Positions 4,177 to 57,932 of a stretch of 64,000 bases of DNA are shown here, piece after piece (position 1 is the stretch's first letter; each line of letters opens with the position of its first letter). The notes under the pieces are model-generated. The model made no database searches and had not been told where the DNA came from. It saw only the letters and a program-made list of their open reading frames with translations. The translations under genes were made by a program, and so were the position numbers. Source of the DNA: a virus; UHGV virus genome UHGV-0148165; one strand, written 5' to 3'.

Positions 4177-4202
4177 AAGGACTCCTTCGGGAGTCCTTTT
4201 TT
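4177..4202 (+). terminator. intrinsic terminator, UUCG-tetraloop hairpin plus T-run
   Basis: AAGGACTCC-TTCG-GGAGTCCTT followed by TTTT directly after soc stop. Confidence 0.65.
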
Positions 4203-4212
4203 CATTTAAACG

Positions 4213-4242
4213 GTTTACTTTCCAAAATGAGTATGGTATAAT
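4213..4242 (+). promoter_or_regulatory. T4 early-type promoter
   Basis: GTTTAC 4213-4218, 18-nt spacer, TATAAT 4237-4242. Confidence 0.55.
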
Positions 4243-6320: not shown

Positions 6321-6350
6321 GTTTACTTTCCTTTCTAACAATGATATGAT
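6321..6350 (+). promoter_or_regulatory. T4 early-type promoter
   Basis: GTTTAC 6321-6326, TATGAT 6345-6350; 8-bp inverted repeat ATGATAGC/GCTATCAT spans -10 to start region. Confidence 0.5.
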
Positions 6351-6376
6351 AGCTTCTGAAGTATACGGAGGCTATC

Positions 6377-7000
6377 ATGATTATTAATCTTGCAGATGTT
6401 GAACAGTTATCTATAAAAGCTGAAAGCGTTGATTTTCAATATGATATGTATAAAAAGGTCTGTGAAAAATTTACTGACTTTGAACAGTCAATTCTTTGGC
6501 AATGTATGGAAGCTAAAAAGAATGAAGCTCTTCATCAGCAGTTGAATAAAATCATTAAAAAGCATTTAACTAAATCACCATATCAGTTATATCGTGGTAT
6601 ATCAAAATCGACAAAAGAACTCATTAAAGATTTACAAGTCGGAGAAGTGTTTTCAACGAACAGGGTAGATTCATTTACTACTAGTTTGCACACAGCATGC
6701 GGTTTTTCTTATGTTGAGTATTTCACTGAAATAATATTTCGCTTAAAAACTGATAAAGCTTTTAATTATTCTGACCATATCAGCGATATTATACTTTCTT
6801 CTCCTAATACTGAGTTCAAGTACACGTATGAAGATACTGATGGATTAGATTCAGAGCGTACTGATAACTTAATGATGATTGTGCGTGAACAAGAATGGAT
6901 GATTCCAATTGGAAAGTATAGAATAACTTCTATTTCAAAAGAAAAATTACACGATTCATTTGGAACATTTAAAGTTTATGATATTGAGGTAGTTGAATGA
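6377..7000 (+). CDS. modA: ADP-ribosyltransferase, Mod family, 207 aa
   Basis: ART motifs: YRG (Arg), STN, EQEW (E-x-E); tandem with second Mod paralog; order as in T4. Confidence 0.65.
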   Translation: MIINLADVEQLSIKAESVDFQYDMYKKVCEKFTDFEQSILWQCMEAKKNEALHQQLNKIIKKHLTKSPYQLYRGISKSTKELIKDLQVGEVFSTNRVDSFTTSLHTACGFSYVEYFTEIIFRLKTDKAFNYSDHISDIILSSPNTEFKYTYEDTDGLDSERTDNLMMIVREQEWMIPIGKYRITSISKEKLHDSFGTFKVYDIEVVE

Positions 7001-11283: not shown

Positions 11284-11313
11284 GTTTACTTCCTCGGTTA
11301 GTTGTGGTATTAT
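11284..11313 (+). promoter_or_regulatory. T4 early-type promoter
   Basis: GTTTAC 11284-11289, TATTAT 11308-11313. Confidence 0.5.
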
Positions 11314-11340
11314 AACACCATAGCTACTGAGGATAATAAA

Positions 11341-11843: not shown

Positions 11844-12389
11844 ATGAAATTTAATTATAATCCTGAATACATACCAAATCCGGTAGCTAAACTGATTGAT
11901 TTTGATGTTGTAAGCACTTATGTATGCCCTGTTAAACCACTGGAAATTAAGGAACCTACTATGACTACCGCTATTGAAATCGGCAAAACCTACAAACTGG
12001 TTGAACCTAAAATTAAAACTAATGCCTTGATTTCTGGTCATAAAACTCTGACTGATGTTTTTGGCGAAGGCGAATTTATTGTTGAAGAATTTGCCAAAAG
12101 TGAGTGGTTTGACAAATCTTACGTCATCCACGGTCGCCGGTTAGATAATAACAAAATAAAGAAAAACCTGGTTTATGAAGATGAGTTCATCCTGTTCCAA
12201 GAAGTTGAAGAACAAGACCCTACAGACCTGTTGTGTGCTGCTGTGTCTATCCGTCGTCCTTTTGATAATCCTATCTGTGGTTGGGTAACAGACCAGTGGA
12301 TTGAAGATGGTGTTGAGCTTCTGAACGTTGTCCATGCAGGAGATTTTAGTGTAGTACCTCGTAGTGCGGTGGTAGCTATTTTGAATTAA
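11844..12389 (+). CDS. hypothetical protein, 181 aa, paralog of the motB-like ORF
   Basis: C-terminal motif CGWVTDQWIEDGVELLNVV shared with ORF 12466. Confidence 0.45.
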   Translation: MKFNYNPEYIPNPVAKLIDFDVVSTYVCPVKPLEIKEPTMTTAIEIGKTYKLVEPKIKTNALISGHKTLTDVFGEGEFIVEEFAKSEWFDKSYVIHGRRLDNNKIKKNLVYEDEFILFQEVEEQDPTDLLCAAVSIRRPFDNPICGWVTDQWIEDGVELLNVVHAGDFSVVPRSAVVAILN

Positions 12390-12391
12390 TA

Positions 12392-12427
12392 GTTTACAAA
12401 CTCTTGGGACCAGAGTATAATGGTCCC
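12392..12427 (+). promoter_or_regulatory. T4 early-type promoter with -10 embedded in a 6-bp inverted repeat
   Basis: GTTTAC 12392-12397, TATAAT 12416-12421, flanked by GGGACC 12406-12411 and GGTCCC 12422-12427. Confidence 0.55.
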
Positions 12428-12465
12428 GTGGAGTATAAAATCTTTTTAACAAGTGAGAGATAATT

Positions 12466-14648: not shown

Positions 14649-16466
14649 ATGATTAAGAATGAAATTAAAATTCTGAGCGATATTGAACATATCAAAAAGC
14701 GTAGTGGCATGTACATTGGCTCTTCAGCTAATGAAATGCATGAGCGCTTTCTGTTTGGTAAATGGGAAAGTGTTCAGTATGTACCTGGTCTTGTTAAGCT
14801 TATTGATGAAATTATCGATAACTCAGTAGATGAAGGTATTCGTACTAAGTTTAAATTCGCAAATAAAATTAATGTTACTATTAAAAACAATCAAGTAACA
14901 GTTGAAGATAACGGTCGCGGTATTCCACAAGCGATGGTTAAAACACCTACCGGTGAAGAAATTCCTGGTCCTGTTGCTGCATGGACTATTCCAAAAGCAG
15001 GTGGTAACTTCGGTGATGATAAAGAACGTGTCACCGGTGGTATGAACGGTGTTGGTTCTAGTTTGACAAACATTTTTTCTGTGATGTTTGTCGGTGAAAC
15101 TGGTGATGGTCAAAATAATATTGTAGTTCGTTGTTCAAATGGCATGGAAAATAAATCATGGGAAGATATTCCTGGAAAATGGAAAGGAACTCGTGTTACT
15201 TTCATTCCTGATTTTATGTCATTTGAAACTAATGAGCTGTCCCAAGTTTATCTTGACATTACATTAGATCGTCTCCAGACACTTGCAGTAGTTTATCCTG
15301 ATATTCAATTTACCTTTAATGGTAAAAAGGTTCAGGGCAATTTTAAGAAATATGCACGCCAATATGATGAGCATGCTATTGTTCAAGAACAAGAAAATTG
15401 TTCTATTGCAGTTGGTCGTTCACCGGATGGTTTTCGTCAATTAACATACGTTAATAACATTCATACTAAGAATGGTGGCCATCACATTGACTGTGTTATG
15501 GATGATATTTGTGAAGACCTTATTCCACAAATCAAACGTAAGTTCAAAATTGATGTGACTAAAGCACGCGTCAAAGAATGTTTGACTATCGTTATGTTTG
15601 TTCGTGATATGAAAAACATGCGATTTGATTCTCAAACTAAAGAACGTTTGACTTCTCCATTTGGCGAAATTCGTAGTCATATTCAACTTGATGCTAAAAA
15701 GATTTCACGTGCTATTTTGAATAATGAAGCAATTTTAATGCCGATTATTGAAGCTGCTTTGGCTCGTAAATTGGCGGCAGAAAAAGCAGCAGAAACTAAA
15801 GCAGCTAAAAAGGCTTCTAAAGCTAAGGTTCATAAACATATCAAAGCGAATCTTTGTGGTAAAGATGCTGACACTACTCTTTTCTTGACTGAGGGTGATT
15901 CGGCTATCGGATATCTTATTGATGTTCGTGATAAAGAACTTCACGGTGGTTATCCATTGCGCGGTAAAGTTCTCAACAGTTGGGGTATGTCATATGCTGA
16001 TATGCTTAAAAACAAAGAATTGTTTGATATTTGCGCAATCACTGGATTAGTTCTTGGTGAAAAAGCCGAAAACTTGAATTATCATAATATTGCTATTATG
16101 ACCGATGCTGACCACGATGGTCTAGGAAGCATTTATCCTTCTCTGCTCGGATTTTTTAGTAATTGGCCAGAACTGTTTGAACAAGGAAGAATTCGCTTTG
16201 TCAAAACTCCTGTAATCATCGCTCAGGTCGGTAAAAAACAAGAATGGTTTTATACAGTCGCTGAATATGAGAGTGCTAAAGATGCTCTACCTAAACATAG
16301 CATCCGTTATATTAAAGGACTTGGCTCTTTGGAAAAATCTGAATATCGTGAGATGATTCAAAACCCAGTATATGATGTTGTTAAACTTCCTGAGAACTGG
16401 AAAGAGCTTTTTGAAATGCTCATGGGAGATAATGCTGACCTTCGTAAAGAATGGATGAGCCAGTAG
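14649..16466 (+). CDS. 39: DNA topoisomerase II large subunit gp39, GyrB-like, uninterrupted 605-aa form
   Basis: GHKL ATPase motifs (NSVDEG, DNGRGIP, GGMNGVGSS) plus TOPRIM region (LTEGDSA, DADHDG) in one ORF; ATG 14649. Confidence 0.9.
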   Translation: MIKNEIKILSDIEHIKKRSGMYIGSSANEMHERFLFGKWESVQYVPGLVKLIDEIIDNSVDEGIRTKFKFANKINVTIKNNQVTVEDNGRGIPQAMVKTPTGEEIPGPVAAWTIPKAGGNFGDDKERVTGGMNGVGSSLTNIFSVMFVGETGDGQNNIVVRCSNGMENKSWEDIPGKWKGTRVTFIPDFMSFETNELSQVYLDITLDRLQTLAVVYPDIQFTFNGKKVQGNFKKYARQYDEHAIVQEQENCSIAVGRSPDGFRQLTYVNNIHTKNGGHHIDCVMDDICEDLIPQIKRKFKIDVTKARVKECLTIVMFVRDMKNMRFDSQTKERLTSPFGEIRSHIQLDAKKISRAILNNEAILMPIIEAALARKLAAEKAAETKAAKKASKAKVHKHIKANLCGKDADTTLFLTEGDSAIGYLIDVRDKELHGGYPLRGKVLNSWGMSYADMLKNKELFDICAITGLVLGEKAENLNYHNIAIMTDADHDGLGSIYPSLLGFFSNWPELFEQGRIRFVKTPVIIAQVGKKQEWFYTVAEYESAKDALPKHSIRYIKGLGSLEKSEYREMIQNPVYDVVKLPENWKELFEMLMGDNADLRKEWMSQ

Positions 16467-16495
16467 TTTACTTTACCACAAGGATGTGGTATAAT
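16466..16495 (+). promoter_or_regulatory. T4 early-type promoter upstream of rIIA
   Basis: GTTTAC 16466-16471, 18-nt spacer, TGG-TATAAT 16490-16495. Confidence 0.55.
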
Positions 16496-20169: not shown

Positions 20170-20727
20170 ATGCAGAAAACAAATCCTGGGTTACAGAGAC
20201 TATTTCAGATTCCGACATTTACCCTATCGAACAGTGACTTGACTAGTGAAATGAAGGTCAAAATTGCTGATACAGCAAGATACTCTTTAAAACAAAACCC
20301 GAACCAGGATAAAGCAGAAGTTATCGAAAGATGCCGTATCGCGGTGTACGCAGAGTTTTTTGTAGCAGATTGGCTAAGCGGGTATGTTAACAAAGGCCAA
20401 GAGGATGTTAATGACCCATATACATACGCATGGGATGTATTGGCGCATCCAAGATACTGCGGGCTTCGTGTAGAAGTTAAGACACATCAAACTGACTCAC
20501 GTTGGATTTCTGTAACAACAGGATGCAGCGGAGAGTATCCATATGGTTCTGGAATAAATCTAGGGCCCATTCTGAATCATCAGGTCGCTGACTGTATAAT
20601 TATATTCAACACTAAAGAAATTCACCCAGGTGTCATTCAGTACACTCCGAAGTTCATTGGTGATAGAGAAGACCTTCGTAAGGTTGTAAGAAAAAGCAAC
20701 TACAACGGATGGTATCTTTCCATTTAA
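20170..20727 (+). CDS. denB: endonuclease IV DenB, 185 aa
   Basis: length matches T4 DenB; position between rIIB and ndd. Confidence 0.75.
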   Translation: MQKTNPGLQRLFQIPTFTLSNSDLTSEMKVKIADTARYSLKQNPNQDKAEVIERCRIAVYAEFFVADWLSGYVNKGQEDVNDPYTYAWDVLAHPRYCGLRVEVKTHQTDSRWISVTTGCSGEYPYGSGINLGPILNHQVADCIIIFNTKEIHPGVIQYTPKFIGDREDLRKVVRKSNYNGWYLSI

Positions 20728-20743
20728 AAATTTTCACAAAACG

Positions 20744-20773
20744 GTTTACATACCACAAGGACTGTGGTACTAT
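20744..20773 (+). promoter_or_regulatory. strong T4 early promoter with AT-rich UP element
   Basis: AAAAATTTTCACAAAACG then GTTTAC 20744-20749, 18-nt spacer, TGG-TACTAT 20768-20773. Confidence 0.6.
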
Positions 20774-20800
20774 ACAACTATCAGCTACGGAGGAGTAAAA

Positions 20801-21248: not shown

Positions 21249-21278
21249 GTTTACAAGACTGTTCTTCCGTGGTACTAT
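21249..21278 (+). promoter_or_regulatory. T4 early-type promoter
   Basis: GTTTAC 21249-21254, 18-nt spacer, TACTAT 21273-21278. Confidence 0.5.
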
Positions 21279-21306
21279 TACCCTATCAACTACGGAGGAA
21301 CAGAAA

Positions 21307-24360: not shown

Positions 24361-24385
24361 ATTTTAAAAATTTTTTCACAAAACG

Positions 24386-24415
24386 GTTTACAACCAAAGC
24401 ATACTGTGGTACTAT
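24386..24415 (+). promoter_or_regulatory. strong T4 early promoter with UP element, upstream of motA
   Basis: AAAAATTTTTTCACAAAACG then GTTTAC 24386-24391, 18-nt spacer, TGG-TACTAT 24410-24415. Confidence 0.6.
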
Positions 24416-24456
24416 ACAACTATCAACTACTGATACAGAATTACGGAGATTAGAAA

Positions 24457-40815: not shown

Positions 40816-40840
40816 ATTTCAAAAATTTTTTCACAAAACG

Positions 40841-40870
40841 GTTTACATCCTTGTCCTTCCATGGTACTAT
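40841..40870 (+). promoter_or_regulatory. strong T4 early promoter with UP element
   Basis: AAAAATTTTTTCACAAAACG then GTTTAC 40841-40846, 18-nt spacer, TGG-TACTAT 40865-40870. Confidence 0.6.
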
Positions 40871-40913
40871 ACAACTATCAGCAATACTGCTAATAATTGA
40901 AGAGGAAAATAAT

Positions 40914-51631: not shown

Positions 51632-51661
51632 GTTTACAAGTCCCTCATGTTGTGTTATAGT
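51632..51661 (+). promoter_or_regulatory. T4 early-type promoter upstream of alc, with flanking imperfect inverted repeat that includes the SD
   Basis: GTTTAC 51632-51637, TATAGT 51656-51661; AGTCCCTCATGTT 51639-51651 pairs with AACATGAGGACT 51676-51687. Confidence 0.45.
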
Positions 51662-51692
51662 AGTCTTACTGACATAACATGAGGACTTTATG

Positions 51693-54328: not shown

Positions 54329-54604
54329 ATGTTTCCGACTTATTCTAAAATCGTAGAAGTAGTGTTTAGCCAAATTATTGCTAATAATATGTTTGAAAAA
54401 CTTGATAATGCAGCTGAGCTTCGAATCCATGCTCAAGTGACTCATGTATTGAACACTTTGCTTCCAGACCAGGTGGATTCTGTTGCCATCACGTTGTATC
54501 CAGGTTCCGCGCATATCATTGTCGTATTTGGTCTTGATGCTGAGCTAGTTATCAAAGGCGATATTCGTTTTGAATCGCAGACAGCAGAATTCAAAGCAAT
54601 TTAA
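54329..54604 (+). CDS. hypothetical protein, 91 aa
   Basis: complete ORF after pseT. Confidence 0.45.
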   Translation: MFPTYSKIVEVVFSQIIANNMFEKLDNAAELRIHAQVTHVLNTLLPDQVDSVAITLYPGSAHIIVVFGLDAELVIKGDIRFESQTAEFKAI

Positions 54605-54606
54605 TA

Positions 54607-54645
54607 GTTTACTTTACGGTAGAGTTGTGATATTATAGCTCTACC
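54607..54645 (+). promoter_or_regulatory. T4 early-type promoter with -10 embedded in a 7-bp inverted repeat
   Basis: GTTTAC 54607-54612, TATTAT 54631-54636, flanked by GGTAGAG 54618-54624 and CTCTACC 54639-54645. Confidence 0.55.
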
Positions 54646-57450: not shown

Positions 57451-57476
57451 GAGGACTCCTTCGGGAGTCCTTTTTT
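57451..57476 (+). terminator. intrinsic terminator, identical copy of the hairpin after soc
   Basis: AGGACTCC-TTCG-GGAGTCCT followed by TTTTTT; same 25-mer as 4178-4202. Confidence 0.65.
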
Positions 57477-57500
57477 ATTTTCCAAAGATTGCACAAAGTT

Positions 57501-57530
57501 GTTTACAGTACGGTTCCTTTGTGATAGTAT
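57501..57530 (+). promoter_or_regulatory. T4 early-type promoter
   Basis: GTTTAC 57501-57506, 18-nt spacer, TAGTAT 57525-57530. Confidence 0.5.
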
Positions 57531-57557
57531 TATCTTACACAAACAAAGGAGAATAAA

Positions 57558-57892: not shown

Positions 57893-57932
57893 GTTTACTT
57901 TGGTACAGGACATGATATTATATACCTGTACC
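57893..57932 (+). promoter_or_regulatory. T4 early-type promoter with -10 embedded in an 8-bp inverted repeat
   Basis: GTTTAC 57893-57898, TATTAT 57916-57921, flanked by GGTACAGG 57902-57909 and CCTGTACC 57925-57932. Confidence 0.55.

Follow-up and report, generated by a model that had tools for sequence, protein, structure and literature searches.

Stem-loops embedded in the early promoters of a T4-like phage genome and their probable folding in read-through RNA

Why should the -10 hexamer of an early phage promoter lie in the loop of an inverted repeat? The question is raised by the motB promoter at 12392-12427 of the virus genome UHGV-0148165, of which a stretch of 64,000 nucleotides (the window) was analysed and in which the -10 element is flanked by the arms GGGACC and GGTCCC. 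A first-pass annotation had quoted five such inverted repeats at GTTTAC-type promoters and proposed that they form a DNA cruciform or, more likely, a 5'-proximal hairpin in the transcript. All five repeats exist in the sequence. In our judgement they are probably promoter-embedded RNA stem-loops of the published PromoterEarly Stem-Loop (PeSL) kind, which fold only in RNA that reads through from upstream; stems of one class (B) would hide the Shine-Dalgarno sequence (SD) and stems of the other (A) would replace a terminator hairpin.

The window represents the early region of a Tequatrovirus (T4-like) genome. A 2-kb query around the motB promoter matched 599 phage records, the best of which were Tequatrovirus genomes with 98-99% identity over motB, cef and goF, and the strand of early transcription in T4 corresponds to the + strand of the window. 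By a mechanical survey 18 credible promoters of the form GTTTAC-N17/18-TAnnnT were identified on this strand, each followed by the SD and ATG of an open reading frame (ORF). Comparison with T4 by tblastn assigned the promoter at 12392 to motB, 11284 to motB.2, 6321 to modB, 7657 to srd, 16466 to rIIA.1, 4213 to mrh.2, 51632 to alc, 54607 to cd.2, 57501 to 30.8 and 57893 to 30.7. Co-directional upstream ORFs stop 2-72 nt from the window promoters, and at all of the strongest stems the stop codon lies 2-11 nt from the -35 element. No Rfam family was found across the whole window, promoter and transcription start site (TSS) features are absent from the GenBank and RefSeq records of T4, and no T4 TSS, Term-seq or 3'-end data set was found in the searched literature. 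Relatives were represented by 76 loci from IMG/VR, anchored on motB (5), cd (42) and gene 39 (29).

For each promoter the 18-nt spacer between the -35 and -10 elements was paired with its own leader (from the end of the -10 to the ATG), and the duplex energy (dG) was compared with the values obtained with the leaders of other promoters, a control that keeps composition and all shared consensus motifs. Over the 18 window promoters the own pairs reached a mean of -10.8 kcal/mol and the mismatched pairs -6.8 kcal/mol, and none of 7419 derangements reached the observed mean. At 11284, 12392, 21249, 51632, 54607 and 57893 the own combination was better than every one of the 34 mismatched ones, and single-site z values against dinucleotide shuffles ranged from -4 to -7.4. 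Among 45 non-redundant promoters of other T4-like phages (from the first 47 loci, after removal of sequences more than 75% similar) the means were -11.1 and -6.9 kcal/mol (z=-11.6), and values of -15 kcal/mol or below were reached by 33% of own and 1.9% of mismatched pairs. The flanking segments gave no signal (z=-0.8 and -0.1 for two 18-mers upstream of the -35, z=+1.7 for the first 18 nt of the coding sequence), so that the effect is specific to the spacer. Chance and base composition as the source of the pairing are ruled out by the mismatched-pair permutations together with the flanking-segment controls. The recurrence claimed in the first-pass annotation is thereby confirmed as a statistically robust observation, and the pairing is clearly under selection; the annotation had in fact under-counted, as further window promoters with stems are those at 1870, 11284, 21249, 41573 and 57501.

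The left arm starts 0-9 nt into the spacer in all strong helices, while the start of the right arm is bimodal, with distances from the -10 element of either 0-3 nt or 10-13 nt. This allowed a division into class A, with the right arm directly after the -10, at a distance of 0-4 nt in the window promoters 12392, 54607 and 57893, and class B, with the right arm 10-13 nt on and over the SD. Class A comprises 51 unique helices with a median stem of 10 bp and a loop of 10-17 nt which is essentially the TGn/-10 element. The 38 unique helices of class B have a median stem of 11 bp and loops of 12-32 nt, and their right arm usually covers the SD. A minor third type has the whole stem within the spacer. 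All features of the window listed below lie on the + strand; dG is the own spacer-leader duplex energy, and fold energies are those of the sense RNA, all in kcal/mol.

12392-12434: motB early promoter, class A; -35 GTTTAC at 12392-12397, -10 TATAAT at 12416-12421 in the loop; arms GGGACC 12406-12411 and GGTCCC 12422-12427, extended stem from 12400 to 12434; upstream ORF stop 12387-12389, 2 nt before the -35; inferred start (+1) about 12428, directly after GGTCCC; dG -19.5, sense RNA -18.7 (z -5.0).
54607-54645: cd.2 early promoter (T4 Pe133295), class A; -35 at 54607-54612, -10 TATTAT at 54631-54636, flanked by arms GGTAGAG 54618-54624 and CTCTACC 54639-54645; upstream stop 54602-54604; inferred +1 about 54643, inside the right arm; dG -14.1, sense RNA -16.3 (z -7.0), antisense -9.1.
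57893-57932: gene 30.7 early promoter, class A; -35 at 57893-57898, -10 TATTAT at 57916-57921, flanked by arms GGTACAGG 57902-57909 and CCTGTACC 57925-57932; inferred +1 about 57928, inside the right arm; dG -15.1, sense RNA -12.3 (z -4.0).
51632-51692: alc early promoter, class B; -35 at 51632-51637, -10 TATAGT at 51656-51661, ATG 51690-51692; imperfect stem GTCCCTCATGTT 51640-51651 and AACATGAGGAC 51676-51686, the right arm including the SD GAGGA 51681-51685; inferred +1 about 51668; dG -22.1, sense RNA -24.3 (z -6.9), antisense -19.0.
6321-6379: modB early promoter, class B variant; -35 at 6321-6326, -10 TATGAT at 6345-6350; 14-bp stem 6345-6358 and 6366-6379, the right arm covering the SD GGAGG 6367-6371 and the ATG 6377-6379; inferred +1 about 6357, at the end of the left arm; sense RNA -18.0 (z -6.0), antisense -10.1.
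11284-11333: motB.2 early promoter, class B; 17 pairs within 11291-11333 between the spacer and the SD region; dG -23.1, sense RNA -23.7 (z -7.4), antisense -13.7.
21249-21303: early promoter of a 37-aa ORF, class B; CTGTTCTTCCGTGG and CTACGGAGGAACAG, 15 pairs within 21259-21303, covering the SD; dG -23.3, sense RNA -22.7 (z -6.1), antisense -15.7.
1870-1915: early promoter, class B; CTCAGC 1879-1884 and GCTGAG 1910-1915, overlapping the SD; a weaker case, dG -13.7, with three of the 34 mismatched pairs as good.
57501-57551: gene 30.8 early promoter, moderate class B; TTCCTTTGT 57514-57522 and ACAAAGGAG 57543-57551; dG -11.3.
16476-16489: stem within the spacer of the rIIA.1 promoter (16466), CCACA and TGTGG.

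The -10 element thus lies in the loop at 12392, 54607 and 57893, as had been annotated; at 6321 it does not, since TATGAT sits in the left arm, and the pair ATGATAGC/GCTATCAT quoted for this promoter is part of the longer 14-bp stem.

For one and the same gene, the arms differ in sequence between phages and yet stay mutually complementary:

motB, arm pairs in different phages: GGGACC/GGTCCC; GGGGTC/GACCCC; GAGAGCC/GGCTCTC.
30.7, arm pairs in different phages: GGTACAGG/CCTGTACC; GCTGATTGAGTGT/ACACTCAATCAGC; TTGGTGTAGGAGT/ACTCTTACACCAA; class B CTCCGTTGTATGT/ACATACAACGGAG.
alc, left arms in different phages: GTCCCTCATGTT; TCTCCATTTGGTTG; TCCTCATCAG; CCTCGTTTGTT, with a matching right arm over the SD in each.

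Covariation of the arms across related phages, which had been suggested as a check, is found most directly at motB. In an ungapped alignment of ten distinct promoters all 70 cells of the 7-bp stem are paired and five of the seven pairs have changed on both sides, compared with 33-51% paired cells in controls in which the partner was slid by 1-3 columns. In the alc family the loops vary in length, which shifts the right arms against one another, and MAFFT with RNAalifold yielded no consensus structure for this reason; alignment-free tests within families were used instead. Own and mismatched means were -16.6 and -9.3 (z=-12) for alc and -17.7 and -9.2 (z=-9.3) for 16 distinct orthologous promoters of 30.7; the 30.8 family is weakly conserved (z=-1.8). 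Orthologues of motB.2 carry a different stem, CTCCTCATG/CATGAGGAG. Moreover, orthologous 30.7 promoters belong to class A in some phages and to class B in others (loci L018, L020, L026, L028 and L048), and this exchange of classes at a single site suggests a shared role.

Which RNA can contain such a stem depends on the start of transcription. The T4 early consensus has GTTTAC at -36 to -31 and the -10 element at -12 to -7 (Nolan et al., 2006), which places +1 about 7 nt after the hexamer and the left arm at about -30 to -13. With its left arm upstream of +1, the hairpin could not form in the promoter's own transcript, and on these consensus-derived starts only RNA reading through from upstream would hold both arms.

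For class B, the predicted consequence is a loss of access to the SD in read-through RNA, in line with the effect on translation that the first-pass annotation had suggested. Partition-function folding gave the following probabilities that the SD is unpaired:

1870: own transcript 0.67, read-through RNA 0.02.
6321: own transcript 0.72, read-through RNA 0.00.
11284: own transcript 0.52, read-through RNA 0.01.
21249: own transcript 0.68, read-through RNA 0.00.
51632: own transcript 0.96, read-through RNA 0.05.
57501: own transcript 0.80, read-through RNA 0.21.

Occlusion of the ribosome binding site is thus predicted for six window promoters of class B, while at the class A promoters 12392, 54607 and 57893 the accessibility of the SD is unchanged in read-through RNA. 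In the 45-promoter set the mean unpaired probability was 0.54 in own transcripts and 0.31 in read-through RNA (p=1e-4), with ten strong switches and none in the reverse direction.

Further evidence comes from the relation to terminators. Canonical terminators with a UUCG tetraloop (AGGACTCC-TTCG-GGAGTCCT and a T-run) lie just 5' of the -35 at 4213 (mrh.2) and at 57501 (30.8):

4177-4198, + strand: canonical intrinsic terminator upstream of the mrh.2 promoter 4213, AAGGACTCC-TTCG-GGAGTCCTT, then a T-run.
About 57452-57477: canonical terminator preceding the 30.8 promoter 57501.

The mrh.2 junction represents the alternative, non-embedded arrangement and matches the T4/PST-type PeSL of Comeau et al. 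(2014). The embedded stems themselves were considered as canonical intrinsic terminators and rejected as such, having loops of 10-17 nt (A) or 12-32 nt (B), where the terminator scan covers loops of up to 8 nt, and A-rich tails. At least five T within 8 nt follow none of 51 class A stems and one of 32 class B stems, and the mean content of these 8 nt is 1.5-2.1 T. Junctions were compared at 40 non-redundant promoters preceded by a co-directional ORF. A strong embedded stem is present in 16 of the 25 whose upstream stop lies within 15 nt of the -35, and in none of the 14 with a gap of more than 30 nt (Fisher's exact p=8.6e-5). These longer gaps have a mean minimum free energy (MFE) of -15.6 kcal/mol, and 86% of them contain a T5 run. 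Stems of the embedded type and upstream terminators are mutually exclusive, as if either could serve a given junction in place of the other, which favours a role on the sense-strand read-through RNA.

Taken together, the following mechanism is probable. The junctions are very compact, having to accommodate a stop codon, the -35, the spacer, the -10, a leader, the SD and the ATG, and the 5' part of the spacer is the sole freely variable sequence upstream of +1 and encodes the 5' arm. With the 5' arm forced into the spacer and the 3' arm past the -10, the TGn/-10 element ends up in the loop. Sigma-70 RNA polymerase would start about 7 nt after the -10 and produce an mRNA that lacks the 5' arm and stays open, while RNA arriving from the co-directional upstream gene would contain both arms and fold; the stem would thus tell read-through RNA from promoter-proximal RNA. 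By hiding the SD, the class B fold would cause alc, modB, motB.2 and other genes to be translated mainly from their own early promoters. The class A stem would fill the niche of a canonical terminator hairpin and most likely attenuate read-through and/or protect the 3' end of the upstream message. More tentatively, T4-like phages may place an anti-SD strand in their early-promoter spacers systematically, so that each gene of this kind would be translated solely from its own promoter's transcripts and would stay silent in read-through RNA. Joined by class A stems in place of terminators where a junction has no room for one, this would amount to a genome-wide system of promoter-licensed translation and insulation of cistrons that the PeSL literature has not recognised.

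Several results weigh against this interpretation and have to be set beside it. Every +1 position used here is derived from the consensus, and a strong stem is missing from about half of the promoters. When the spacers of all 18 window promoters were shuffled as a control for SD occlusion, the difference did not reach significance (p=0.25), in part because pyrimidine-rich spacers keep their ability to pair with the SD after shuffling. Asymmetry between the strands is not general, with 41 G.U and 39 A.C among all interior mismatches of 102 helices and a mean MFE of -13.8 for sense and -13.3 for antisense RNA in 40 non-redundant hairpins (p=0.5); selection may therefore act on the DNA or irrespective of strand. 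The function of class A is the weakest part of the model, because these stems have no contact with the SD and U-tracts are absent (0/51). Finally, the stem might be opened in part by a ribosome that terminates 10-16 nt before it, which would bring about translational coupling instead of silencing.

Some observations on individual promoters may be added here. Downstream of the motB stem, by 2-3 nt, a GGAG (12430-12433) is followed by an A-rich tract (12430-12440), and both are kept in most motB orthologues even where the stem sequence differs. The real motB SD follows about 25 nt further downstream, and this GGAG, which no start codon follows, resembles a RegB-type cleavage site. Within 12440-12465 the motB SD itself is predicted to be paired even in the own transcript (unpaired probability 0.02), as part of a local AU-rich hairpin (ATCTTTTT...GAGAGAT). 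At cd.2, the 14 nt TTGTGATATTATAG (window 54625-54638, T4 NC_000866 133300-133313, locus L079 5801-5814) constitute the exact loop including the -10 between the GGTAGAG and CTCTACC arms. The T4 RefSeq annotation describes this segment as the inverted complement of an earlier reported sequence, as a correction of the early promoter Pe133295, which lies between cd.2 and cd.3. The flipped loop of the earlier version would destroy the promoter and may stem from an Escherichia coli clone selected for promoter inactivation or from a sequencing artefact. The in-spacer motif of the rIIA.1 promoter, CCACA-agga(c)-TGTGG, is found again at 20753-20767 (promoter 20744) and also in other phages (L025); the stems at 16466 and 20744 have -8.2 and -9.4 kcal/mol, and their right arm forms the TGn extended -10. 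Three cassettes at 20724-20800, 24366-24440 and 40821-40900 (promoters 20744, 24386 and 40841) share the near-identical flanks aaaaattttttcacaaaacgGTTTAC ... tggTACTATacaactatca and have unrelated spacers. Within this repeated promoter cassette the hypervariable part is the spacer, and such cassettes could serve as recombination substrates of the PeSL type. The association with indels, ORF replacement and recombination in hyperplastic regions that is typical of PeSLs is thus hinted at indirectly, by these repeated cassettes and by the different stems at orthologous promoters.

Among the rival explanations, the published PeSL model survives best. It regards the stems as terminators or attenuators of upstream transcription and the cassette as a recombination linker that shuffles ORFs; it overlaps with our own reading for class A, and as an account of the stems as a whole we consider it possible, if rather doubtful. 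In RB49, the single stem assayed (PeSL211/210), inserted between a promoter and lacZ, reduced expression to a similar degree as rrnB T1, and mini-circles joining PeSL to PeSL were detected (Arbiol et al., PMC2839356). The geometry in RB49 is the same, the embedded stems exclude canonical terminators, and near-identical cassettes occur at 20744, 24386 and 40841. Loops of 10-32 nt and U-poor, A-rich tails, however, are not those of canonical intrinsic terminators, the precise cover of the SD by half of the stems is left unexplained by papers that are silent on translation, and recombination alone would need no covariation between the arms.

An RNA processing or stability element appears unlikely. 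After a cut in the leader by RegB (at GGAG) or RNase E, the stem would remain at the 3' terminus of the upstream cistron and protect it as a hairpin, and in class B it would also shield the GGAG of the SD from RegB. In nearly all motB orthologues a GGAG and an A-rich tract are conserved 2-3 nt after the stem, RegB is described to cut GGAG in early intergenic regions and to be inhibited by secondary structure, and the stems are found where other junctions have terminator hairpins, a type of structure that protects 3' ends as well. The argument is purely inferential, though, and a GGAG beside the stem is documented for motB only.

Somewhat less likely still is translational coupling, in which the SD of class B would stay closed until the ribosome that ends the upstream ORF melts the stem, with the result that translation of read-through RNA would depend on translation of the upstream gene. 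Where the stems are strongest, the stop precedes the -35 by 2-11 nt, and a terminating ribosome would stand beside the base of the helix. From the geometry, however, the left arm begins about 10-16 nt past the stop, so that the ribosome would reach no more than the first few pairs of helices of 11-22 bp, and class A would find no explanation.

A DNA-level element, be it a cruciform, a sequence bound by a protein dimer or a -10 switch that can be inverted between the repeats, is improbable. In its favour are the lack of a global sense/antisense asymmetry, which keeps selection on the DNA in consideration because strand specificity is not general, and the T4 record in which the 14-nt loop of cd.2 was once given inverted. 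As single-stranded DNA, however, the class A stems at 12392, 54607 and 57893 reach -8, -5 and -6.8 kcal/mol, well short of the sense-RNA values listed above, and since these hairpins are weak and have loops of 8-15 nt, the extrusion of a cruciform as first annotated is unlikely. The arms have no conserved sequence that a protein could recognise. For the strongest window stems, sense RNA is favoured over antisense RNA by 4-10 kcal/mol; in the motB alignment all ten non-Watson-Crick cells are G.U or U.G and none is A.C, compatible with the sense strand, and at positions with at least three Watson-Crick pairs on both sides G.U outnumbers A.C by 13 to 4 (p=0.049). The case for RNA of the sense strand rests more on position, as the right arm of class B tracks the SD and the exclusivity concerns terminators of the sense strand. 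The 5'-proximal hairpin of the promoter's own transcript, which the first-pass annotation had favoured and for which nothing speaks beyond the existence of the repeats, is very improbable: with +1 7 nt after the -10, transcription would start past the left arms, which span about -30 to -13, and starts downstream of the repeats are what the annotation itself had named as evidence to the contrary.

If the reading as promoter-embedded, read-through-specific stem-loops is true, the -35/-10 spacer is not neutral filler and would at the same time supply the 5' strand for an RNA switch between promoter-proximal and read-through mRNA. This could explain the sharp immediate-early pulse of densely packed, often toxic host-takeover genes (alc, modB, motB) despite persisting read-through RNA, and it would explain the divergence of spacers among otherwise near-identical promoter cassettes. 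Edits of the spacer in engineered T4-like phages could then alter downstream translation, and the arrangement would offer a compact insulator design for synthetic operons.

Comparison with known systems enables a more precise classification of the stems. A phage early promoter with a short inverted repeat is also known from coliphage N4, where the promoters of the virion RNA polymerase are DNA hairpins with a 5-7 bp stem and a 3-nt loop that are recognised by the phage polymerase. In contrast, the promoters described here are normal sigma-70 promoters with -35 and -10 elements, and their hairpins are weak as DNA. The UUCG terminators of T4 are likewise intercistronic hairpins of the sense strand at junctions that also have an early promoter. 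They differ in their loops of 3-8 nt, their U-tract and their position upstream of the -35, whereas the embedded stems have loops of 10-32 nt and A-rich tails and straddle the -10.

The closest relatives are the PeSLs, which were defined in RB49 and phi1 (Arbiol et al., 2010, PMC2839356) and extended to PST/T4 and nt-1/KVP40 (Comeau et al., 2014, PMC4122927). The first-pass annotation had regarded the feature as apparently undescribed for T4 early promoters; for T4-type phages in general the geometry is published, and we reproduced it in RB49, where stems with the -10 in the loop are present at ORFs 185, 192, 198, 204 and 225-227 (e.g., cGGGAGTagTAAGATACTCCC at ORF225). Shared traits are a strong early promoter of the sigma-70 type, an AT-rich upstream region, a short junction of co-directional small ORFs and an SD and ATG behind it; all 18 window promoters lie in intergenic junctions of this form. 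In RB49 and phi1 the stem-loop is located 'between the -35 and -10 or overlapping the -10', and G.T pairs in stems were noted by the PeSL authors, too. In the window the -10 is straddled at 12392, 54607, 57893, 41573 and other promoters, and the stem lies in the spacer at 16466 and 20744. Class A is therefore a member of the published PeSL kind, corresponding to the RB49/phi1 subclass 'overlapping the -10', and the in-spacer stems correspond to the subclass 'between -35 and -10'. In T4 and PST, by contrast, the stems were drawn 'just upstream of the promoter', with the pattern AGNA-loop-TCNT of a terminator hairpin (PMC4122927) and not across the -10. The published reading as terminators or attenuators and recombination linkers does not include translation, ribosomes or the absence of the stem from the promoter's own transcript, and the SD-covering class as well as the exclusivity with upstream terminators are absent from the PeSL papers.

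For class B the nearest precedent is found in the T4 genes e, soc, 49 and I-TevI (also segB, and mobE of Aeh1), in which the SD and/or AUG is buried in a helix in long read-through transcripts and the transcripts of an inner promoter, lacking the 5' strand, are translatable. Class B, and modB (6321) above all, has exactly this geometry: the left arm lies in the spacer or the -10, so that on the inferred +1 the proximal promoter's transcript is devoid of the 5' helix strand. The promoters embedded in these T4 genes and their relatives are late ones (TATAAATA), the purpose is a temporal delay, and the genes 'are all late genes' according to the literature. The promoters of alc, modB, motB.2 and motB are instead GTTTAC/TATAAT early promoters. 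Class B as predicted here differs in its early sigma-70 promoter, in the 5' strand located in the -35/-10 spacer and in the many early genes concerned. An early promoter with an anti-SD strand in its spacer is undescribed in the searchable literature, while older T4 descriptions that are not open access may exist. If read in this way, the stems of the window would link two literatures that have been separate, that of the PeSL cassettes and that of ribosome binding sites occluded around late promoters.

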